Source: Escherichia phage kvi
Reading direction: 5' to 3' (one strand)
DNA: 64,000 nucleotides
Sequence record: MN850615.1
Positions 1,681 through 35,610 of this stretch are shown here, piece by piece. Numbering within the stretch: the stretch's first letter is position 1; each line of letters begins with the position of its first letter. Below the pieces are notes generated by a model. That model was given only the letters and a program-made list of their open reading frames with translations. It made no database searches and was not told the origin of the DNA. The translations under genes and the position numbers were made by a program.

Positions 1681-3789
1681 TTAAAATTTAACATTCTTAA
1701 CCAGTTTCATAAAGTCTTGTGCGCGTTTGTCATTATGCAGAATACGATACCAGTTATCGACAATATCATACAGTAACGGGCTATTCTCTTTAAACTTCGC
1801 ACAAACTGCTTTAATTCGTTCGTTTGCTACCGTGAATTTTTCATCACAAATCTTTTTAGTTTCTTCGTCCATAATCCAACGAGTACGAAGGAGTAACTTG
1901 GAAACCTCTTTATTATAATGACGACCGTACAGTCTGTCAATAAATTCTGGAACACAGCGTTCTAGTTCATCGTCATGAAACAACATAGTGATCACACCCA
2001 GATATTCGCCATACCCCAGATGATTGGTCTTAACCTTCTTAGCCAGACCAGCCAGCTTACCGCGAACAAATTCTAGCGCACATTCCAATTGTTCGTCAAC
2101 GAGATATTTTTGTGTCTCGTTTCGAGTAATAATATACTTTGTTACCCCGAAGTAGTCAAGCGCCGTGTGTAATGTATTTTCACTATGGATCGATTTACGA
2201 CTACGGCTTTCGAATGCATCACCTACGCGGAACATGTGCAAGCCTGATAACTCGCGAATCTCTGCCGCTTTCATGTGATGGCTGGTTTTATGCCAACTGT
2301 CACCAATCTTTTCCATGATATACACGTTAGGCAGCTTAGGAGTCGCTTCACGTTGTGTACGCTCGGTCTTCTCCGGTTTAACTGCTTTAGCACGCAGATC
2401 ATCGGCCTCAGAAACTTTAATCACGGTCATTTCAGAATCATCATAATACTGTTTGATGTACTCGAAAGTTTCCATATGTTTTTCGTTGCGCTGACGGAAC
2501 ACCAGTACCTTTTTATTGATGCCGTATTCCTGGACCATACCGTTAAGAGTCAGTGCGCGTAGTTTCGGTTTATCGGTATCATCAATAAGACACATAATAT
2601 CTTCTTTATGCATCCATACAAAATGCGTAATGTTGTATTGACTGCTAACGAAAGCAGGGCGCAATTTACTGATTGTGTGACGAGTACGATACAGAGTATA
2701 CACCTGACCTTCTACGTCATTAGGCGAATCTTTACCCGCATTCACAAACTTATTATAGATTGCTACCGGATCATCCCACTGCCCGATCTTACCCATCTTG
2801 CTAATAATATTGCGTTGAGTCGATGAATACTCGCTCATAAATTGCGCAAGTTTACGCTCTGTTTTAATGTTGGCGATCTTCTCTTTGACCTTTTCCAACA
2901 TCATTTCATTGATTTCTGCAATGCGTTTTTCGATGTTCGCTTTAGTCTCAATTGACAAGTGAACTTCTTCACGCGATGGCATCAGGTCCAGATCACCCAA
3001 CTCAAAATTAATGTAAATGGTCTGGTGCTGGCGGTTTACAGCTTCTAACCATGTTCCGCGAACATATTCATACGGGATCGGATACTGGATCTTACCCATG
3101 ATTGCATATACTACATAGGAATCGTTATCACGCCCATTACAAACATAATAATTATCAAAGCTAGGGAAATAATTAATTTCGATTGCATTGATATTAGGTT
3201 TGTGTTCCCCAAAATGACGCAGTACAAATTGCGCTTCTCGATGCCATGTCTGAATATCTTTTTCTTTCACCGGAATAGTGATTTTCAGACCATTGTCTTC
3301 ATAGGTCGGTTCGTCGAAAATCTGCACCATTTTCGGCATAGAGTTTTGCACAAATGCCGTAAAGCCATAAGCGCGACCATTGTAATAGTTTACGATTGTA
3401 AAGGTGTCAGTGTAGCTATAAGCAGATTTCGCACCTAAACCAAAAGACCCGATATAGTCATTAGTCTGGTCTTTTGTTGATTCAAAGTAAACCGTAAACA
3501 GTTGTTCTAATTCTTTCTTAGACGGAATACCAGTACCATAATCACGCACAGAGAAATACGGTTCGATTGCAGTCGGTAAATGAATATCAAACGGACGATC
3601 TAAGGTTCCGGCTTCTTTGTGAGTGTCGGTAGCATTGCACGAATACTCACGGACGCAAGCACGCTCACAATATTGATAAGTGTTCTTAGAAAGCACCATA
3701 AAAGCCTTGCTACTTGCTTTCAGTGAAAAATCAACCGCACCGCTCAGGTCACTGCCAAATACTTCTTCATTATCAATATGCATTTTCAT
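1681..3789 (-). CDS. rIIA: rIIA protein (GHKL/HATPase_c-like N-terminal domain)
   Basis: 702 aa; motifs VRDYGTGI and GSFGLGAKSAYSYTDTF typical of the rIIA ATPase fold; synteny with rIIB and gene 39; GAGGA RBS. Confidence 0.9.
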   Translation of the reverse strand: MKMHIDNEEVFGSDLSGAVDFSLKASSKAFMVLSKNTYQYCERACVREYSCNATDTHKEAGTLDRPFDIHLPTAIEPYFSVRDYGTGIPSKKELEQLFTVYFESTKDQTNDYIGSFGLGAKSAYSYTDTFTIVNYYNGRAYGFTAFVQNSMPKMVQIFDEPTYEDNGLKITIPVKEKDIQTWHREAQFVLRHFGEHKPNINAIEINYFPSFDNYYVCNGRDNDSYVVYAIMGKIQYPIPYEYVRGTWLEAVNRQHQTIYINFELGDLDLMPSREEVHLSIETKANIEKRIAEINEMMLEKVKEKIANIKTERKLAQFMSEYSSTQRNIISKMGKIGQWDDPVAIYNKFVNAGKDSPNDVEGQVYTLYRTRHTISKLRPAFVSSQYNITHFVWMHKEDIMCLIDDTDKPKLRALTLNGMVQEYGINKKVLVFRQRNEKHMETFEYIKQYYDDSEMTVIKVSEADDLRAKAVKPEKTERTQREATPKLPNVYIMEKIGDSWHKTSHHMKAAEIRELSGLHMFRVGDAFESRSRKSIHSENTLHTALDYFGVTKYIITRNETQKYLVDEQLECALEFVRGKLAGLAKKVKTNHLGYGEYLGVITMLFHDDELERCVPEFIDRLYGRHYNKEVSKLLLRTRWIMDEETKKICDEKFTVANERIKAVCAKFKENSPLLYDIVDNWYRILHNDKRAQDFMKLVKNVKF

Positions 3790-3803
3790 AATATAATCCT
3801 CAC

Positions 3804-4061
3804 TTAATTAAAATCTTCTTTGTCCATCTCTGCGTAGATTACATCCCACGCCCATAAATCAATAAACGCATTATATGTCACGGTGCAATCGTTGTCAATC
3901 ACTTCTTTCGCATATTTCTTGATGTTTTCGTAGGAAACTTGCGGGTCAATTTTGTGTTTACGAAGGTGCGCATATTCATATCTCAGACATTTCATAAACA
4001 GGTCCATCGATTTCTTTTCTCGATGACACTTGGCGATCATAAAATCAAAACTTCGACTCAT
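3804..4061 (-). CDS. hypothetical protein (85 aa; rIIA.1 position)
   Basis: minus-strand ORF immediately upstream of rIIA. Confidence 0.4.
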   Translation of the reverse strand: MSRSFDFMIAKCHREKKSMDLFMKCLRYEYAHLRKHKIDPQVSYENIKKYAKEVIDNDCTVTYNAFIDLWAWDVIYAEMDKEDFN

Positions 4062-4882: not shown

Positions 4883-5442
4883 CTAAAATTTAAAGATGCA
4901 AACTCCCCGTGATGAATTTTTGCATATTCATCATATGCTCTAGCGGCTTCCTCCTGAGTAGCAAACGATCCTATGTATTTTCTGTATCCGTTTATCCTTA
5001 TTTGTGCTTGCCACGGTCTTTTGCTAGATCCTTTGCGATGAGTAACACCATTATATATGCTCGTGCACCCGTCAATTTTCTTTTTATTGTACATGTTTTG
5101 TTGTTGTGTTGCCTCCCGTAAATTTGGTGGATTGTTGTTTTCTGGATTCCCGTCTATGTGGTCTATTACCTTAACCTGTGTTCCATATTCAAGAAACCAG
5201 ACAATTCTATGTACAAGATATGTAGATGTTCTCTTTTTAACCTTATTGTAAACATCTATTGCCAAATGACCGTAATTTAACTTTTTTGTTTTTACTTTAT
5301 CACCGACTCGGTAGAAATATCCCTCTGGTAGACCATTAAAAGACGGACTATTTGTTTTGTGATATAGAACACCTTCCGTGTGTTCAAATCTGCGTTTTAA
5401 TTCCTCTTGAATTTCAGTATTCCAAAATTTCGCACTTTTCAT
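4879..5442 (-). CDS. free-standing HNH homing endonuclease with C-terminal AP2-type DNA-binding domain
   Basis: HNH motif (…HRIVW…IDHIDGNPENNNPPNLR…) and AP2-like C-terminus (…RPWQAQIRINGYRKYIGSFATQEEAARAYDEY…); start codon overlaps the gp39 stop. Confidence 0.8.
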   Translation of the reverse strand: MKSAKFWNTEIQEELKRRFEHTEGVLYHKTNSPSFNGLPEGYFYRVGDKVKTKKLNYGHLAIDVYNKVKKRTSTYLVHRIVWFLEYGTQVKVIDHIDGNPENNNPPNLREATQQQNMYNKKKIDGCTSIYNGVTHRKGSSKRPWQAQIRINGYRKYIGSFATQEEAARAYDEYAKIHHGEFASLNFS

Positions 5443-5443
5443 A

Positions 5444-7267
5444 TTATGACGCCATCCATGCCTTCCTCATGTCTGAATCTTCACTATAGAGCAAATCGAA
5501 TAGCTCTTTATAGTTTTCCGGTAACGTGATGATCTCCATGACAGGATCGTTGATCACGCGATGATAGTCTGATTCTGTGAGCGATGCTAAACCTTTGATA
5601 TATCGAATGTTGTAACCTTTGATATTATCTCGGTCGGTCTCAAAATCTTCTAGGTCATAATACCATCGAACATCATCACCTTTCTTTGGTTCCGCAATGA
5701 TAATAGGTGTTTTGATAAACCGGATTCGTCCATCTTCGAACAATTCAGGCCAACGAGCAAAGAAAGAGATCAGACTAGGTTTAATAGACCCGATCCCGTC
5801 AGTATCAGCGTCTGTCATAATCGCAATATTTTTGTATTGCATAACTTCCAATGCATCAACACCAAATTGCAAGCCAGTGATCGCCATGATGTTAAAAATT
5901 TCGGCGTTCTTAACGATCTTTGCCTCCGGTTGTTCCCACGTTGTAAGAGTTTTGCCTCGCAACGGGAAACCTCCATGTAAATCTGGATCACGTACAGAGA
6001 CCAGATAGTTGATCGCGGAATCACCTTCCGTCAAAAACAGGGTAGTTTCTGCGTCAGTTCCAATAAGGTTAGCTTTAACGTGTTTTGCTACCTTAGCCCG
6101 TTTCGCTGCTTTTGCTACCTTAGTCGCTGCCGCTTTATCTGCTGCCTCTTTGCGTGCCAGGACTACAGCAATAATAGGCATGATAATGTTTTCTTTCTTC
6201 GCAATGACTTTAGCCAGCTTTTTAAAATCAAGATCAATATGACGCTTGATATCACCAGTTGGATTAGTCAATCGTTCTTTTGTCTGTGAATCAAAACGAA
6301 GGTTAGGCAATTCACGAACAATAAGAATACAGGTCAATCCAGACTTAACCGCAGCTTTAGTAACATCAACCTTATGTTCTTTCTTGATTCGTTTTACAAT
6401 CTCTTCACAAAGATCATCTGTCACGTAGTCTACGTGTGTTCCCCCGTTTTTGGTAAACAGACCATTAGCAAAGGATACTGATTTAAAACCTTCTCCCTCG
6501 ACCGCAGGAACTAGGGCAAGTGAAAAGTTTTTATCTTCAATGACAAACGGATCATCATTGTATAGTTTAGCATAATCCTTGAACTTACTAACAATACGTT
6601 TACCATTAAACTTAAACGTGATCTTAGGAAAGATTACGCTCAATGATTGCAGACGATCATGAACAATATCTAAAACAGAGTTGTCCATCATATAACCTTC
6701 GAAGTGGTCGAAGTCTGGGCAAAATGTAACCTTTGTTCCCTTCAATTTTGATGGTTTCGATGACCATGTGATATTTTCAGCACCGTTTGTACATTGAACG
6801 GTCATTTCTGTTTCTCCGTCACAGGTCACACCAGTAAACCAATCGCTAAAGAAATTTGACAACGACGACCCCACACCGTTCATCCCTTGCGTTAATCGAT
6901 TGGTATCATCAAAGTTAGACCCTGCTTTTGTTCGTGTCCATGCGGCTACAGGTTGCGGAATCTGCGTGCCCTCTGGAGTAGTAACCATATGTTGAGGAAT
7001 ACCGCGACCATTGTCTGTTACCGTAACAATATTGTTTTGGATATCGACGCTAATCACATTGGCAAATTCAAAATTAGTGCGAATCGCCTCGTCTACAGAG
7101 TTGTCGATGATCTCATCAATGATTTTAACCAGTCCTGGAACATATGAAATTTTTGTCCATTTACCGAACAGGAAACGTTGGTGTTCTTCGTAAGTTGTTG
7201 ATCCTATATACATTCCTGCACGCTTAAGGACATGTTCACGATCAGATAAAATGCGAAACTCACTCAT
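5444..7267 (-). CDS. 39: DNA topoisomerase II large subunit, GyrB-like ATPase (T4 gp39 with the gp60 portion fused in one ORF)
   Basis: 607 aa; GHKL ATPase motifs (DNGRGIP, GMNGVGSS) and TOPRIM region (…TEGDSA…, …MTDADTDG…); one continuous ORF, unlike the split T4 39/60 arrangement. Confidence 0.93.
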   Translation of the reverse strand: MSEFRILSDREHVLKRAGMYIGSTTYEEHQRFLFGKWTKISYVPGLVKIIDEIIDNSVDEAIRTNFEFANVISVDIQNNIVTVTDNGRGIPQHMVTTPEGTQIPQPVAAWTRTKAGSNFDDTNRLTQGMNGVGSSLSNFFSDWFTGVTCDGETEMTVQCTNGAENITWSSKPSKLKGTKVTFCPDFDHFEGYMMDNSVLDIVHDRLQSLSVIFPKITFKFNGKRIVSKFKDYAKLYNDDPFVIEDKNFSLALVPAVEGEGFKSVSFANGLFTKNGGTHVDYVTDDLCEEIVKRIKKEHKVDVTKAAVKSGLTCILIVRELPNLRFDSQTKERLTNPTGDIKRHIDLDFKKLAKVIAKKENIIMPIIAVVLARKEAADKAAATKVAKAAKRAKVAKHVKANLIGTDAETTLFLTEGDSAINYLVSVRDPDLHGGFPLRGKTLTTWEQPEAKIVKNAEIFNIMAITGLQFGVDALEVMQYKNIAIMTDADTDGIGSIKPSLISFFARWPELFEDGRIRFIKTPIIIAEPKKGDDVRWYYDLEDFETDRDNIKGYNIRYIKGLASLTESDYHRVINDPVMEIITLPENYKELFDLLYSEDSDMRKAWMAS

Positions 7268-28880: not shown

Positions 28881-29906
28881 CTAACTTTTTGCGCTATTTA
28901 CCTCGGCTAAAAGTTCATCAGAAATACGCTTGACCGCCGCAAGTTCTTCCGGTTCTAGGTTTTGTTCTTCCAGATATTCATATACCATCTGAATAGTGCT
29001 TTTAACTTCAATAACACCTGTTTCCTGTGATGCGCTACTCTCCAGTTTATGGACCACTTTTAGCTTGTGTACAACGGCCTCTAACGCGCTTTCTAACTTA
29101 GTTAACCCATTATCAGCAACCGTTGCAATAAGACGCACACTAAGCCCCTTAAAGCGTTCTACATCGATTTTATCATCTGACGGGTAAGTGATACGCACAT
29201 GATAAGTTTTGTCATTCTGGATAAACTCTTTTTTGTGTGTATCGGTATCGAATACCCAAAACCCACGCGGATCGTTTTCGTCACCCGCCGTTAGTGTGTA
29301 TGGTGTACCGATATACGTTACATTACCGCCATCGCTGATAGTATGAAAATGACCGGAAAACACTTCACGGTATTTCTTGAGGAAGTCCGCGCTATAACCT
29401 TCGGATTTTAGCCCTTTATAGAAATAGTAACCGGACAATTCCCAATGGCCTACACAATATTCGCTGAATGAGTTTTGAATAAACTCTAAAATCTCTGATT
29501 TATTGTCATCACAAAACCACGGGAACAGATCAAATGATACACCATCAAAGGTAACTGTTTCCGGTTTATCGATAACCTTAATGCAATCATACTGGCTTAA
29601 CACTTCACGCGGTGCGTTAGGCTGGATCTTGTTTCGTTTAAACATATCATGGTTCCCGACCGTGATATAACAAGTAATTCCAGCCTCTTCCAGTAATGGG
29701 ATGACCTTAGTACGGTTAAATTTCATGGTTTCATGGGTAATTGCTTTTCGGCAATCAAACCAATCCCCTGTTTGAATCCATGTCTTAATATTATGCTCTT
29801 TGGAGTATTCAACCGCCTTCTTGATGGTATCAAGAATATACTCATGCACCCACGGATCATCGCCACCGATACCAGTATGCAGATCACCTAAAAGCAAAAT
29901 TTTCAT
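28881..29906 (-). CDS. 47: recombination endonuclease subunit, Mre11/SbcD-like phosphoesterase
   Basis: 341 aa; calcineurin-like motifs (LLGDLHTG…, GNHD); partner of gp46. Confidence 0.93.
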   Translation of the reverse strand: MKILLLGDLHTGIGGDDPWVHEYILDTIKKAVEYSKEHNIKTWIQTGDWFDCRKAITHETMKFNRTKVIPLLEEAGITCYITVGNHDMFKRNKIQPNAPREVLSQYDCIKVIDKPETVTFDGVSFDLFPWFCDDNKSEILEFIQNSFSEYCVGHWELSGYYFYKGLKSEGYSADFLKKYREVFSGHFHTISDGGNVTYIGTPYTLTAGDENDPRGFWVFDTDTHKKEFIQNDKTYHVRITYPSDDKIDVERFKGLSVRLIATVADNGLTKLESALEAVVHKLKVVHKLESSASQETGVIEVKSTIQMVYEYLEEQNLEPEELAAVKRISDELLAEVNSAKS

Positions 29907-29949
29907 AGTCTCTTCCTCTCTTCGTTTTCGATGCTCTCACTATATCACA

Positions 29950-29975
29950 GAAAAATAAAAAGGGAAACCCCTTTC
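29950..29975 (-). terminator. weak terminator-like hairpin upstream of gene 47
   Basis: AAAGGG…CCCUUU palindrome followed by UUUAUUUUU on minus strand; short GC core. Confidence 0.25.
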
Positions 29976-29996
29976 AGAGTCTCCCTTATAAAGCCA

Positions 29997-30285: not shown

Positions 30286-30519
30286 TTATTTTACCTCTGG
30301 GATATAATCAATTATTAAAGAAAATTCATCTTCTGATACATTATAGCTATGTGAGATTGTACCCGTAAAGACCTCAAGATCCGGTGATTTGATATTGCAC
30401 GGATCGATAATCACCGGAACGCCGCAATCTCTCAAAAATAATTTGGCGAAATACGGCACAAGGTCAGTTTCAAACTCTGCTTCTTCCAGCAAACGGGAAA
30501 TGTTAATTTTCAATCTCAT
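30286..30519 (-). CDS. hypothetical protein (77 aa)
   Basis: minus-strand ORF; overlaps the gp55 stop. Confidence 0.4.
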
Positions 30520-31036
30520 AAAATTGGTCCAAGCTAGGCAATTCCTCGGTCAATACATCTTCAACCTTTGGCGCTTTCGGTTTATTGACCGATTCCTCGT
30601 AGTTGTTGATTTTATCGTAAATGTCCTGTATGAATGCCTCATCAGCAATCTGGCACATATCAGCGTCGCGTTCGTCATATACATGATGCACAAAATATTT
30701 GTATTTTGCGGCTGTCGCTGTTCTCTCTTTTTTAATGCGCTGTACAAAAGCATTAAAGCACGCTTGCGTGATGTAAGCATGAGGATTTTTATACTTTGTC
30801 TCGTCAAAATTAATCAAACCCTTGACCGCCGCTTCGATTCCGTCGTCGATCATTTCTTCGCGCCATGTTTGACTATAACCAGAAAAGTTAAAACGACGTG
30901 ATAGATTTTTAGAGATTTGCATAATTGCTAGGCCGATTTGATCGCTCATTGGAACTTGCCGACCTTCTGCTGCAATTTGTTGTTTCCAACGGCAAATTTC
31001 TTCGTAAAGCTCTTTATTGTTTACATAATCAGACAC
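30503..31036 (-). CDS. 55: late-transcription sigma factor
   Basis: 177 aa; closely colinear with T4 gp55 as recalled (…[30 protein letters not shown]…); GTG start with GAGGG RBS. Confidence 0.95.
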
Positions 31037-31076
31037 TTCGCACCCTCGCTATTATTTAGGAAATAACCCTTTCGGG

Positions 31077-32546
31077 CTATTCCCCATTGCCATTATACTT
31101 TCTTTGCTTAGTTATCCACACTCTAACCATCTCTACAGATTCGCCGTCAGACGGATCAAGAGTTTTTCCTTTTTTCTTCATGCGGTACTTAAATCCGTTA
31201 AATCTTGCATTCTCTTGCTCGTTAAAGTCGAACATCTTTTTAAATGATTTTCGCCCTTTACGCTCACCACATTCTAGCGGAATCATTCGGTCTGTTATTA
31301 CATTGGCATTAGGTAGAAACGTTTTTAGATAATCCACCAACGCCCAATCAGGAACATATAGATTAACATTCTCCTTGCTCTCGTTGTCTCTCAGGTTACA
31401 ACGCAAACATAATTGAAATGCTGGTTCCAGATAATCAGACACATGACGCGCTTTCAAAAACTCGTTTGTCGGGAGATCACAACTATTAGCAAGACCTTTT
31501 AAAATATCAATCTCCCATCGTTGAGGGTTAAAGCTGAACATCACAGCAACATTTTTATGATGAATGTAAGAGTTAAGACCATAAGATCCGTAAGGTATCC
31601 GCTCACCAATACCATTTGTACACGCTTCTCGGTCCCGATTCACGGTATAAATGAAGTCATCGCCACATTCATTTTTAACCATATCAACAAGACGTTCAAA
31701 GGTATTGTTTGTTTCTGACTGGTGACGCGACCATCGTTCAGAGTCCGTCATAAGGATGATATTAACTCTATCTGTATTTTTATACTCTTTGAAATATAGT
31801 CTGGATTCTAGCGCACTCGGAACAAAATCGCAATTTGCATAGTATCGTAGATACTTCCCACTATATGTATCAAAGAGATTTGCACATGCTATCGTAACCT
31901 TTTTAAAGTCTCCCCACGTACCGTGTTTGTTATCGTTCAAGAAAACAATTTTCGACCCATTCTTCCGGTGTCCTTCGTTATGTTTTACCATAACGTTGAT
32001 TTTCTTCTCTAATAACGCCTCATAAAGCCCTCTAAGAGAAGAATCGATCATATCAGTACCATCCTTCGCACTTTCTATCTTTTCTTTGATAGCGGCCTTC
32101 TCAGAGTCTTTTAGAACTAAGTTCTGTAGGCATTCCGATTCGTCGGCGATTGGTTCGCAATGCTTCGTGATAAGTTCAAGATTAGACTTAAACGGATACT
32201 CATTAAATTCAACCAGTTGAGGAACTTCATCAATGTAAAGAGCATAATCACCAAACATTTTTGAACGTTCCATATTAGATAACGCTGTATGTGTAATGAA
32301 TATCACATCAGCACCGTCTTTAACTGATTGCATTATCGACGCTTGCACTGTCTTAAGGCTTCTTAGTCTTGTGCTATCAATCAAGACAGCACGACCGCCC
32401 ATTCTTTTAAACTTATTGTAAGATTGTTCACTTAAAACACGAGATGGCGAAGCAATAACCGCTTTTTCTTTTGTCTCTAGGACGTGGGAAAGTATAGCAT
32501 CAGTTTTCCCCGCCGCTGGCAATGCGATTAATGTTTCAATCTTCAT
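31077..32546 (-). CDS. P-loop NTPase of unknown function (Walker A/B), possible helicase-like ATPase
   Basis: 489 aa; Walker A LPAAGKTDA, Walker B ALYIDEV; no counterpart I recognise at this T4 position. Confidence 0.5.
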   Translation of the reverse strand: MKIETLIALPAAGKTDAILSHVLETKEKAVIASPSRVLSEQSYNKFKRMGGRAVLIDSTRLRSLKTVQASIMQSVKDGADVIFITHTALSNMERSKMFGDYALYIDEVPQLVEFNEYPFKSNLELITKHCEPIADESECLQNLVLKDSEKAAIKEKIESAKDGTDMIDSSLRGLYEALLEKKINVMVKHNEGHRKNGSKIVFLNDNKHGTWGDFKKVTIACANLFDTYSGKYLRYYANCDFVPSALESRLYFKEYKNTDRVNIILMTDSERWSRHQSETNNTFERLVDMVKNECGDDFIYTVNRDREACTNGIGERIPYGSYGLNSYIHHKNVAVMFSFNPQRWEIDILKGLANSCDLPTNEFLKARHVSDYLEPAFQLCLRCNLRDNESKENVNLYVPDWALVDYLKTFLPNANVITDRMIPLECGERKGRKSFKKMFDFNEQENARFNGFKYRMKKKGKTLDPSDGESVEMVRVWITKQRKYNGNGE

Positions 32547-32833
32547 TAGAAACCCTTACGTCGTGCTTTCTGGCATTTCTTGATCATTTTATCAGAAATT
32601 TCGCGCTTAGGTGCAATCTCTTTCACACCGAAAGCACTAATGCCAAATTCAGAGAGAATATATTCAACCAACAATTCACGCACACGCGCTTTACCGATAT
32701 TCACGCCGTTATTTTTCAGATATGTCTGGCCTTCGACTTGCATCAGATCTAAATCCGCGTCGGTAATATTGATTTCTTCCATGCGCCCAAATCGAGAATA
32801 AACCATGTGTGCGATTGCATTGTGTACTAACAT
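32546..32833 (-). CDS. hypothetical protein (95 aa)
   Basis: ATG at 32833 with GAGGAA RBS; the track ORF begins at an upstream TTG. Confidence 0.4.
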   Translation of the reverse strand: MLVHNAIAHMVYSRFGRMEEINITDADLDLMQVEGQTYLKNNGVNIGKARVRELLVEYILSEFGISAFGVKEIAPKREISDKMIKKCQKARRKGF

Positions 32834-32854
32834 AATATATTCCTCACTCAAGAA

Positions 32855-33013
32855 TTACTTAATGATACTTACTTTACCAGATCCGTGACAATGAGCGCAA
32901 CACCCATCACCACGCAATCCTGTTCCGTTACAGTGTTTACACTTCTTCAACGGTAAAGCCATTATAGCAAATAAAGCAATAATGAACACCGAAACTAAAT
33001 TCTCAATAATCAT
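32855..33013 (-). CDS. small membrane protein with C-terminal CxxC…CxxC zinc-ribbon (52 aa)
   Basis: MIIENLVSVFIIALFAIMALPLKKCKHCNGTG…CCAHCHGSGK; start overlaps the nrdH-like stop. Confidence 0.3.
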   Translation of the reverse strand: MIIENLVSVFIIALFAIMALPLKKCKHCNGTGLRGDGCCAHCHGSGKVSIIK

Positions 33014-33272
33014 AAATCGCCCTCAGTTCTTTATAGCCTCCAATGTGCTCGTTGTCAATGAATATCTGGGGGTATACAAACCGGAGGCTCTTTGAGTTTA
33101 GCCTCCCCGCCAGTTCTTCAATCATATCACGGTCGGGAATAATGTCAACCCCGACCTGCTTGAATACTGGTTTAAGTGTATACGGAATACCCAGATCATC
33201 CAGTAGCTTCATTGCACTAATACAACCATAACAATGATAAGCCTCTTTCGGTATACCGTATATCTCGATCAT
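33003..33272 (-). CDS. nrdH: glutaredoxin-like protein (NrdH-type redoxin)
   Basis: 89 aa thioredoxin-fold with CYGC active site and …PQIFI…IGGY… tail; T4-syntenic with nrdG/nrdD. Confidence 0.6.
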   Translation of the reverse strand: MIEIYGIPKEAYHCYGCISAMKLLDDLGIPYTLKPVFKQVGVDIIPDRDMIEELAGRLNSKSLRFVYPQIFIDNEHIGGYKELRAIYDY

Positions 33273-33769
33273 TTCTCAGCCTTTAATCTTTCTAGTTCTT
33301 CTTCCAGTTCCTTGATCCGTTGGTCACGTTCAAAGTCACGCTGTAACTTAGTGGCGAATACTCGTTTAAACTGATTGTAATCATCGATTTTAAACACTTC
33401 TTCTTCGCCATAGCGACGCACAGAAACTTCGTAGTTATTGAAGAATTGTTGCATCATTGCTTCGGATGATAGCTCTGCTGATACCACTTTAAAATATTGA
33501 TCTTCTGTAGGCGAAAACCAATTACAAGCATAAAGATAAACCTTTTCATTGTCTGGACACTGGTAAGCCTTACCATCGATTTCAATCACAGAAACATACT
33601 CAGGTATACTAGATGAATCAATAGCTAAGACTTTAAACGCACGGTCCCCGATAAACTCGGAGATCACACGATTCGCATCACTGGTTGCAAATGCTTTACG
33701 CGCTTGTTCGTTTTTCCACTGATAGGTCATACCAACAACAAACATATTACCAACCTCGCTCTTTACCAA
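33269..33769 (-). CDS. hypothetical protein (166 aa), paralogue family 1
   Basis: N-terminal G(K/M)TY(T/Q)WK motif shared with the three following ORFs. Confidence 0.45.
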   Translation of the reverse strand: MVKSEVGNMFVVGMTYQWKNEQARKAFATSDANRVISEFIGDRAFKVLAIDSSSIPEYVSVIEIDGKAYQCPDNEKVYLYACNWFSPTEDQYFKVVSAELSSEAMMQQFFNNYEVSVRRYGEEEVFKIDDYNQFKRVFATKLQRDFERDQRIKELEEELERLKAEK

Positions 33770-34571
33770 TCAAAAATTCAACTTCACGACGTTTAATGTC
33801 TTCTTGAAGGTCTTTAATCTTCTGGCGATCTTGCATGATTTCATCCATCTTGTCAAGTGCCGCAATGAAATCATCGAAACGTTCAAAGGTTTTACCTTCA
33901 TTTGCTTCGCCAAATTTAACCATTGTCAGGCCGTAACGACTACTAAACAGACGTTTCAACTGTCCAACGATCTTAGAATCAGTGGTTATAACTTCCAATT
34001 CTTCTACTTCACGAAAGAATTTTCTATCAGAATCAATAAACCAGCTAGTTCCTTTATGGTCTCTATCTTCGGTTGCGCTCATTAGAGTATGGTCTTTACC
34101 ATCAATTTCAATTACATCAATTTGCCCACATGGACGAACATTTTTAACAGTAAAAGGTCTATAATTTATTGCTCGTGCAATAACATAATTAAGGTTAGAT
34201 ACGTTTTCAGCATAATGGCAGAAGTCGGTCATAGCATTCACATCTTTCCAAGTATAAGTTTTACCAACTTCCCATTTCTGGGGAACTTCTTCAACTTCAC
34301 GAAAGAATTTTCTATCAAATGGACTAAAGAAATATGTTGCAGTCCAAATGTCTTTTCCTGTAGCAGTTTTCGCCGTATGATAAACACCGTCTAGCTCTAT
34401 TGCATTAATCCAACCGTTACCCTCGATCTCGATGATGGTAAATGGCTTGTCACCAATAGCTGCACTAATATCGCTGTTAAGTGGAGAAAGAACACCTTCT
34501 CCGTTAGTAATAAACTCAGTTTTAGCGTTTTCATCTTTCCAGGTGTAAGTTTTACCAATTTCCCATTTCAT
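33747..34571 (-). CDS. hypothetical protein (274 aa) with internal tandem duplication, paralogue family 1
   Basis: two ~95-aa repeats each beginning KWE(I/V)GKTYTWKD and ending FDRKFFREVEE. Confidence 0.5.
   Translation of the reverse strand: MKWEIGKTYTWKDENAKTEFITNGEGVLSPLNSDISAAIGDKPFTIIEIEGNGWINAIELDGVYHTAKTATGKDIWTATYFFSPFDRKFFREVEEVPQKWEVGKTYTWKDVNAMTDFCHYAENVSNLNYVIARAINYRPFTVKNVRPCGQIDVIEIDGKDHTLMSATEDRDHKGTSWFIDSDRKFFREVEELEVITTDSKIVGQLKRLFSSRYGLTMVKFGEANEGKTFERFDDFIAALDKMDEIMQDRQKIKDLQEDIKRREVEFLIGKERGW
34001..34316 (-). repeat. intragenic direct repeat (~30 bp, 1 mismatch) marking a domain duplication
   Basis: tcttc(t/a)acttcacgaaagaattttctatca at 34001-34030 and 34287-34316. Confidence 0.7.
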
Positions 34572-34583
34572 AATATATTCCCC

Positions 34584-35084
34584 TTAACCGATTTTATCAA
34601 GTTCGTTTAATGCTTTCTCTGCTTCCTGTATAGCTTGCACTCTTTCCGGCATTTTGTCAAGAAAATCTTTCAACTCTTCAAAACTGGAGATATGACGCAA
34701 GGCATTAGCACCGATAGCCGCATGTGATTTGCATTCAAAGCGAATTTTATAATTATCCATCGCCAATTTGAGAAGGTCTATTAGATCATATTCATGACCA
34801 GGCAATAAAACTTCTTTGAAGCACGCTCGGTCGCCATCGGAAAACCATATATTATCACCAACATCGATAGAACTAATATAATCCCCTTCGTGATTATAGA
34901 TTGAACGTACATTACCCCAACGGTCTACCGTAGCGACAGTAAATGGTTTATCTAGATATGTAAACACACCATCAATATTAGGTTTTTGTTCGTAACGCCA
35001 ACAATCACGCAAAATGCGCTTTTCGTCCTCACCAACCAACTTATATGTCTTCCCTTCTTCCCATTTCATAATATCATCTCTCAT
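34584..35084 (-). CDS. hypothetical protein (166 aa), paralogue family 1
   Basis: N-terminal KWEEGKTYK motif; coiled-coil-like C-terminus. Confidence 0.45.
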   Translation of the reverse strand: MRDDIMKWEEGKTYKLVGEDEKRILRDCWRYEQKPNIDGVFTYLDKPFTVATVDRWGNVRSIYNHEGDYISSIDVGDNIWFSDGDRACFKEVLLPGHEYDLIDLLKLAMDNYKIRFECKSHAAIGANALRHISSFEELKDFLDKMPERVQAIQEAEKALNELDKIG

Positions 35085-35610
35085 TTTTGATACGTGATTC
35101 TAATTGGATCATACGGTCGCGCGTTTGCTTGTATTCGCGGATAGCACCGATCCGGCTAGGCATACCATCCAGTACGCTCTTAATACCTTCTATGGTAGTA
35201 ATTTTGGCAATGCTATTATGTAACCCCATCTTATCGATCAACTGAATGTCGTAGGCTTCCATAAGCAGACCCAGACGTTCTAAAGTTAGGTCTTCTTCTT
35301 TTTCTTCCGATTCTGGAATCTTAGGTTCAATAGTAACTTCGGTAAAGAAACGACGCTCACCCGACCAAAACCACACACCGGAACAGCCAATAGGGGATTC
35401 TTTTAACGTCATAGAGTCGAAATTACTATTATTGGTAGTAATTTCTCTAACATCACCATCATCGTCAAGGTCTTCTACCCTAAACGGGCGACCAGCCAAC
35501 AAGTCAACAATACATCTGTTAATAGACGACGAAAATTTAGTCAGTTCGGCTTTCGACGCTTCGCATTCAATCTTGTAAGTTTTACCAACTTCCCATTCCA
35601 TAATAATCAC
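35074..35610 (-). CDS. hypothetical protein (178 aa), paralogue family 1
   Basis: N-terminal EWEVGKTYK motif. Confidence 0.45.
   Translation of the reverse strand: MIIMEWEVGKTYKIECEASKAELTKFSSSINRCIVDLLAGRPFRVEDLDDDGDVREITTNNSNFDSMTLKESPIGCSGVWFWSGERRFFTEVTIEPKIPESEEKEEDLTLERLGLLMEAYDIQLIDKMGLHNSIAKITTIEGIKSVLDGMPSRIGAIREYKQTRDRMIQLESRIKNER

Follow-up and report, generated by a model that had tools for sequence, protein, structure and literature searches.

T4-type phages are the reference system for the replisome and for recombination, and their helicase set, gp41, Dda and UvsW, is regarded as complete. Among the helicases of superfamily 2 (SF2), XPD carries its Arch domain between motifs II and III, and CasDinG is an accepted XPD/DinG member without a functional iron-sulfur (Fe-S) cluster. 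In 2018, Kazlauskas et al. predicted a novel helicase family of viruses and plasmids, associated with primases and with its closest homologues in T4-like phages (PMC5862659). Here, we analysed a stretch of 64,000 nucleotides from Escherichia phage kvi (record MN850615.1; the whole stretch is called the window below) and, within it, an open reading frame (ORF) of 489 amino acids (aa) at 31077..32546 on the minus strand, next to the late sigma factor gene 55. Our results indicate, from sequence and model together, that this ORF codes for an intact SF2 ATPase motor with an XPD/DinG-like domain topology.

The source phage is assigned to Krischvirus, the RB49/JSE/FL20-type T4-like coliphages, and the window is 99-100% identical to the Krischvirus genomes RB49, JSE, Phi1 and FL20. 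The ORF is intact, has an ATG start and is the orthologue of RB49p044, which is annotated as 'hypothetical protein' and, in one record (W115), as 'putative helicase'. An earlier note on this DNA had described the ORF together with a Walker A motif and an ALYIDEV motif, and this description was exact, with LPAAGKTDA at aa 9-17 and ALYIDEV at aa 101-107. The PAAGKT and DEVP motifs at these two sites are invariant in an alignment of 42 full-length homologues obtained by database search (31-74% identity; alignment A1), and the invariant residues extend over the whole core. The first part of RecA-like domain 1 (HD1; aa 1-110, 32217..32546, minus strand, as are all parts of the protein) contains PAAGKT at 10-15, with P10, G13, K14 and T15 of motif I invariant, ASPSRVLSEQS at 32-42, with S33, L38 and S42 invariant in motif Ia (ASxSRxLSxQS), the Ib-like FITH at 83-86, with T85 invariant, and the motif II DEVP at 106-109, with D106, E107 and P109 invariant. 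The second part of HD1 (aa ~216-255, 31782..31901) holds a motif III-like TIAxAN, read as TIACAN in the window protein, in which T218 and N223 are nearly invariant. RecA-like domain 2 (HD2; aa ~256-420, 31287..31781) carries YxxNxxR at 300-306 (Y300, N303 and R306 invariant), (H/Y)GLN at 322-325, where G323 and N325 of HGLN are invariant and the window protein reads YGLN, NPxxW at 340-344 (N340 and W344), the motif VI-like FQLCxRxxxR at 377-386 (F377, Q378, L379, C380, R382 and R386) and VPD at 398-400 (V398, P399 and D400).

This conservation extends to distant relatives. A profile search of 1.84 billion cluster representatives retrieved 1329 relatives at E<=1e-3, of which 765 reach E<=1e-10, and residues were counted in the 146 best distant representatives and motif spacing in 132. 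GK(T/S), DE, HGxN and QxxxRxxxR are near-universal in the 146; the counterpart of A217 is kept in 134/146, the G, N, Q, R and R of HD2 each in 143-144/146, and the counterparts of Q378, R382 and R386 in 144/146. Since these residues are invariant in the 42 homologues and near-universal in the distant representatives, the motifs cannot be attributed to chance, and as judged from conservation the 489-aa protein is a functional ATPase under selection.

Family searches placed the protein with relatives that are as little described as itself. It matches phrog_2467, a PHROG family of unknown function, over its full length (E 2.9e-175), with aa 1-489 aligned to positions 8-502 of the 502-position profile. 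Pfam DEAD was reached only marginally above its gathering score (27.3 bits vs 26; aa 11-130); among 40 distant members DEAD matched 28 and ResIII 15, and Pfam Helicase_C matched neither the window protein nor, among the 25 of 28 families listed, any of the 40. PDB searches gave nothing useful, whether the query was the protein alone or the family profile, NCBIfam gave no meaningful match for the protein, and the family profile showed a faint match to the IclR winged helix-turn-helix (HTH) in the region of the C-terminal tail. The AlphaFold2 model built on A1 (mean pLDDT 87.7, pTM 0.75) shows two RecA-like domains, the second of which aligns to SF2 HD2. In the fold search, XPD/DinG-type matches score clearly higher and align 312-368 residues, against ~240-260 for generic SF2 proteins, and the overall predicted fold is closest to XPD/DinG among the SF2 clades. 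With motifs I and II in RecA-like domain 1 and a second RecA-like domain with motif VI, the protein belongs to SF2 as far as sequence and model can define it.

The earlier note, which proposed structure prediction and fold comparison as a check, had left the protein as an unassigned NTPase. This reading is partly supported. The protein is neither a terminase nor an AAA+ protein nor a T4 housekeeping helicase; the lack of assignment no longer holds, as the protein is predicted to be an SF2 motor of XPD/DinG-like fold in phrog_2467. Clear homology to a T4-type housekeeping ATPase was looked for and not found: no specific homology to T4 gp41, Dda, UvsW, gp17 or gp44 was detected, UvsW appearing only as a distant structural match, and the identities terminase, AAA+ and UvsW/Dda/gp41 are ruled out by the family and fold evidence.

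The XPD/DinG-like topology includes an accessory domain of ~105 aa (aa ~111-215, 31902..32216) that extends from motif II to TIACAN and is modelled with a pLDDT of 77-92. It sits exactly at the position of the XPD/DinG Arch, the equivalence being one of position, and an insertion of 97-137 aa between motifs II and III was present in 132/132 of the distant members measured. The Fe-S domain of XPD has no counterpart here. The spacing from Ia to Ib is 41-64 aa in the 132 distant members, which leaves no room for a 4Fe-4S domain, C130 and C380 are the only invariant cysteines in A1, and fewer than four cysteines, and thus no four-cysteine cluster, occur between motifs Ia and II in 130/132. The protein ends in a basic helical tail (aa ~430-489, 31080..31256), with helices at 443-458 and 468-486 in the model.

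Distant relatives join the same core to other modules. The 150 best distant representatives form two size classes, ~480-550 aa and ~750-890 aa; the long forms contain the whole core including the insertion (hhalign of A1 against A2: Prob 100, E 6.5e-66, 430 columns) and have an extra ~375-400 aa at the C-terminus. Invariant features of this extension (alignment A4) are a segment with LDxDGGDL, the Asp of GxDxSK and a terminal helical segment PxGxxxNxxFF...L...G...IE..L. The Atu_ph07 protein (Prob 99.4) and P0043 (Prob 100) carry the extension as well. It shares homology with the 'DNA primase' of an N4-like Acinetobacter phage over aa 500-690 of the latter (hhalign Prob 95.9, E 6e-9), and it matches PHROG 'DNA primase' families; one database relative carries PF08707 PriCT_2, and a search for this domain in PDB gave nothing. 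The reverse order is seen in P0130, with motifs of archaeo-eukaryotic primases (AEP), IIVFDFDED, GSGHVYV and TSDRLF, N-terminal to the helicase core. Distant short forms often carry an HTH (HTH_23, HTH_28, HTH_29, HTH_7 or MerR). The HTH_23 of P0085 is located in the C-terminal tail (aa 464-503) and corresponds in position to the window protein's basic tail, in a region where the alignment is weak; in the long forms, a basic linker occupies the position of this tail. Structural relatives in BFVD come from the unrelated phages phiRSL1, Fnu1, Motura, H101 and Atu_ph07, and bacterial copies are located, judging from a few plasmid matches, in integrative or phage-plasmid elements.

Two observations concern individual relatives. 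The long form of the Agrobacterium jumbo phage Atu_ph07 (762 aa, positions 4908-7196 of the locus analysed), with a C-terminal DxD/PriCT-like domain, is the only fused example from a cultured phage that we found, and it adjoins a gene for an adenine-specific DNA methyltransferase. A 408-aa ORF beside the Sinorhizobium short form was considered as a split-off primase-like domain and rejected.

Among T4-like phages, the survey of presence and absence that the earlier note had proposed was done by tblastn and detected the helicase in 243 phage records and gp55 in 1880, or ~13% of gp55-bearing records. It was present in 77/77 Aeromonas T4-like records and in 53/611 'Escherichia' records. Krischvirus copies share at least 97% identity, and copies at 35-42% identity are found in Erwinia Cronus, Proteus PM2, Morganella MP1, Serratia PS2, all Aeromonas T4-likes and the RB43-like phages of Cronobacter, Citrobacter, Enterobacter and Klebsiella. 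The gene order is 55, helicase, 55.2, Zn peptide, nrdH in RB49 and 55, helicase, orf, orf, 55.2, nrdH in Aeromonas phage 25, while in RB16 it is 55.2, helicase and then gene 34, the adjacency to 55 being lost. The earlier note had called the gene inserted. This does not hold, since the same locus is occupied at 35-42% identity, including in Aeromonas phage 25, the gene does not differ in GC content from the genes around it, and the gene still adjoins 55.2 in RB16. Phyletic distribution and synteny thus identify the helicase as an ancestral accessory gene of its lineages that is absent from the T-even group. It is an extra helicase, because RB49 retains dda, 41 and 61; RB49 also encodes uvsX, 43, 44, 62, 45, 46 and 47. 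In Aeromonas phage 25, the helicase start lies within a 4-nucleotide (nt) overlap with a 191-aa ORF (positions 3429-4004 of the locus analysed) annotated as 'DprA-like DNA recombination-mediator protein'; this annotation has no Pfam or PDB sequence support and was not used.

The helicase gene is linked to 55.2. The window orthologue of 55.2 (DUF7570, 101 aa; 32546..32851, minus strand; PF24454 E 1.4e-28) is 41.7% identical to T4 ORF 55.2, and its TAA stop codon overlaps the helicase ATG as TAATG; an equivalent 4-nt overlap of 55.2 and helicase is present in RB16. T4 gp55.2 was shown experimentally to be an inhibitor of E. coli topoisomerase I, to increase the copy number of plasmids with R-loop-dependent replication and to improve phage fitness (PMC4396842). 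On the other side, gene 55 (30503..31036, minus strand; phrog_234 E 4.2e-63, in agreement with the RB49 annotation) lies 40 nt downstream of the helicase, and the earlier note had correctly placed the two genes next to each other. The note also had the helicase followed by a short ORF and a membrane zinc peptide: the adjacency is correct, but both genes are upstream in the direction of transcription, the peptide of 52 aa, with a transmembrane segment and a zinc knuckle, being encoded at 32855..33013 on the minus strand (phrog_3931). The minus-strand genes comprise gp47 (28881-29906), homologues of a-gt.4 and a-gt.5, 55, the helicase, 55.2, the Zn peptide, nrdH (33003-33272), four goF-like paralogues and nrdG, so that the helicase is surrounded by genes of replication, recombination and nucleotide metabolism (46/47, nrdH, nrdG) on its own strand. 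Every gene between 24049 and 50627 is on one strand, and no T4 late promoter TATAAATA occurs in this interval, an arrangement that would fit a prereplicative transcription unit; no MotA-box match was found near the helicase gene.

Based on these results, we favour, with moderate confidence, the view that the 489-aa protein is an ATP-driven SF2 nucleic-acid motor of XPD/Rad3/DinG-like architecture, auxiliary to the initiation or priming of phage DNA replication or to the processing of R-loops and recombination intermediates. The protein would bind single-stranded DNA (ssDNA) across HD1 and HD2, and ATP hydrolysis, with Walker A K14 and D106/E107 as putative catalytic residues and R382/R386 as a candidate arginine finger, would drive its translocation. 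A 5'->3' direction is probable by analogy with XPD/DinG, whose fold the protein resembles, and from the primase fusions of its relatives, as primase-coupled helicases follow the lagging-strand template. The motor may unwind duplex DNA, D-loops or R-loops, or remove proteins from DNA, and so may assist replication initiation or priming, or process R-loop and recombination intermediates, origins or blocked forks on phage DNA. This would be an auxiliary role like that of Dda or UvsW, performed by an unrelated helicase lineage outside the T4 core replisome. The overlap with 55.2, the neighbouring genes and the HTH, PriCT and AEP fusions of the relatives make assistance to initiation or priming, or R-loop processing, the most likely job. 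That it acts specifically on R-loops or origins, given its pairing with a topoisomerase I inhibitor that favours R-loops, is an attractive hypothesis.

Several observations weigh against this view. The link to XPD/DinG comes from structure prediction only: Pfam DEAD_2 (PF06733) and Helicase_C_2 (PF13307) have no match in the window protein at E<=1 and are not among the 25 families listed, of 28 in total, for the 40 distant members at E<=0.01. In the absence of any XPD/DinG-specific sequence signal, we describe the protein as Fe-S-less XPD/DinG-like and do not file it in that Pfam family. In XPD the Fe-S domain forms the wedge and pore, and as it is missing here, true unwinding and its polarity are uncertain. 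That the C-terminal domain of the long forms is a primase is an inference that draws on the hhalign match to the annotated N4-like phage protein and on motifs; the domain has no invariant His, and its matches to Pfam PriCT_1 and RepB_primase_C are faint. The T4-like short form itself has no primase-like module, and the resemblance of its tail to an HTH is weak. Around the helicase gene there is no iteron or origin-like repeat cluster, and sigma-70-like promoter sites are not enriched over shuffles; since that scan does not rise above background, expression timing is read from gene order only. Finally, the function proposed for the window protein is reached by inference, and our literature search found no functional study of the 489-aa ORF.

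A broader version of the proposal can be formulated, although we regard it as unlikely. The family would then be a group of replication helicases, not recognised before, that phages and mobile elements share: monomeric, XPD-like and Fe-S-less, either helicase-primases or origin-targeted, and a counterpart in bacterial viruses to herpesvirus UL5/UL52 and UL9. The RB49-type and Aeromonas phages would carry a primase-less version that cooperates with gp55.2 in establishing or processing R-loop-primed origins. If true, this cooperation would give RB49-type and Aeromonas T4-likes a replication-initiation route that T4 lacks.

The fold result also bears on another, rather unlikely, explanation, in which the protein is a non-unwinding translocase on double-stranded DNA, like Snf2 or Mfd, that clears RNA polymerase, nucleoid proteins or stalled complexes, or aids gp55-dependent late transcription. 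The position beside gene 55 is lost in RB16, and there are neither Snf2-specific insertions nor a SNF2 Pfam match in the protein. XPD/DinG-type structures match clearly better, with ~70-100 more residues aligned, and the primase fusions argue for a motor that tracks ssDNA.

The synteny and distribution of the gene similarly make it quite unlikely that the protein is a counter-defence, superinfection-exclusion or defence factor, whose motor would strip or remodel a host immune complex (clustered regularly interspaced short palindromic repeats, CRISPR, or other R-loop effectors) on phage DNA, or would target competing mobile elements in the manner of defence-system helicases. Counter-defence genes are usually patchier than this one, which is syntenic, vertically conserved down to 35% identity and universal in the 77 Aeromonas T4-like records. 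PADLOC returned only RTasSLATT at chance level (13.6 bits, E 0.009, 60 residues), no nuclease or other effector domain is present in the 489-aa protein, and the fusion partners in the superfamily are primase-like and HTH modules and not effectors.

We give little credence to a sequence-specific replication initiator like herpesvirus UL9, which would open a dedicated phage origin, even though several features of the superfamily point that way. Distant short forms do join the helicase core to a C-terminal HTH, one of the 40 distant members matches Pfam Herpes_ori_bp (E 0.0014), the 55.2 partner would favour R-loop-dependent origins, and UL9 similarity was noted by Kazlauskas et al. for the sister group pVOG9714 (PMC5862659). 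The window protein itself, however, has no Herpes_ori_bp (PF02399) match and no recognisable HTH in its tail, UL9 is not among the top 50 BFVD matches, and its relatedness to UL9 was accordingly rejected; no iteron-like repeats flank the gene, and T4-like phages already start replication through R-loops and recombination. An RNA helicase or ribonucleoprotein remodeller acting on phage or host mRNA is highly improbable, as motif II is DEVP and not DEAD, the Q-motif and the DEAD-box motif III (SAT) are missing, DEAD-box matches in the fold search cover a single RecA domain (~140 residues), and an insertion at the Arch position, like partners of the primase and HTH kind, is typical of proteins that act on DNA.

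Other features of the neighbourhood are recorded here as separate observations. Between the helicase stop codon and gene 55, which starts with GTG, the 40-nt spacer (31037-31076) harbours a mini-hairpin, CCC-GAAA-GGG, and a partial CTAAATAA that resembles a late promoter. The 52-aa peptide (32855-33013) has an N-terminal transmembrane helix and a zinc knuckle, CxxCxGxG...CxxCxGxG, that resembles the cysteine-rich region of DnaJ; its gene shares 11 nt with the 3' end of nrdH and is conserved as RB49p046. From nrdH to nrdG (33269-35610, minus strand), there are four tandem paralogous ORFs of 166, 274, 166 and 178 aa, which look like a locally expanded gene family. Two of them were scanned, the 166-aa ORF at 33269-33769 and the 274-aa ORF at 33747-34571; both match phrog_5347, with weaker matches to goF-like 'mRNA metabolism modulator' PHROGs. 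The remaining two are similar to this pair by eye only, and the N-terminal module of the 274-aa ORF is present twice. RB49 has a gene for an HNH/AP2 homing endonuclease, RB49p040 (positions 2953-3507 of the RB49 locus compared), between 47 and a-gt.4, and the window has at this site (29907-29996) only a 90-nt spacer with a terminator-like hairpin (29987-29960); Krischviruses are thus polymorphic for the presence of a mobile endonuclease here. Between uvsX and 43, RB49 (1-23500) has neither gene 42 (dCMP hydroxymethylase) nor beta-gt and keeps a homologue of the gene 56 dCTPase, a gene content that fits unmodified cytosine DNA in RB49-type phages.

About 1 in 8 sequenced gp55-bearing phages thus encodes an additional conserved helicase of a different lineage, and the carriers include all of the Aeromonas T4-like records as well as the groups of RB49 and RB43, which are used for transduction and phage therapy. 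The system is experimentally approachable through its Fe-S-less XPD/DinG-like fold, the translational coupling to 55.2 and the repeated primase-like and HTH fusions of its relatives, and characterisation could reveal an alternative pathway of initiation or fork maintenance and define a widespread helicase-primase family of mobile genetic elements. Should the protein be just another accessory helicase, the interest would be modest. The type of protein is unsurprising, but it marks a clean gap, open to testing, in the best-studied phage replication system.

The family to which the window protein belongs, here phrog_2467 together with phrog_31024, is probably that of Kazlauskas et al., with pVOG1685 as its putative counterpart there, and it was very probably already noted, briefly, in 2018 (PMC5862659). 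Both concern uncharacterised SF2-like proteins of some T4-like phages with relatives fused to AEP primases, as in P0130. The published note made no fold assignment, and the XPD/DinG-like architecture and the forms with helicase first and primase-like domain last go beyond it. New here are the assignment of a Fe-S-less XPD/DinG-like fold and the finding that the core is rigid in architecture throughout the 1329 cluster representatives and combines with one of three modules (HTH, C-terminal DxD/PriCT domain or N-terminal AEP). Also new are the distribution and synteny of the gene among T4-like phages, with its coupling to 55.2.

By predicted fold, the closest known system is XPD/Rad3/DinG, the SF2 5'->3' DNA helicases, and especially Fe-S-less or vestigial members such as the CRISPR type IV CasDinG. 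The window protein differs from them in being smaller, with 489 aa, in having no four-cysteine Fe-S domain and in its distinct motifs TIAxAN, HGLN, FQLCxRxxxR and VPD, and the C-terminal modules of its superfamily are a basic tail, an HTH or a primase-like domain. At the level of the superfamily, there is a functional analogy to herpesvirus UL5/UL52 and UL9, in that a monomeric, non-hexameric helicase is coupled with either a primase of the AEP type or a DNA-binding domain, although UL5 belongs to superfamily 1B (SF1B) and the window protein carries neither a primase nor a recognisable DNA-binding domain. In terms of role, the nearest comparison is with T4 Dda (SF1B) and UvsW (SF2, RecG-like), non-replicative helicases whose sites of action are origins, forks, R-loops and intermediates of recombination, which is the kind of role that we propose for the helicase encoded between genes 55 and 55.2.

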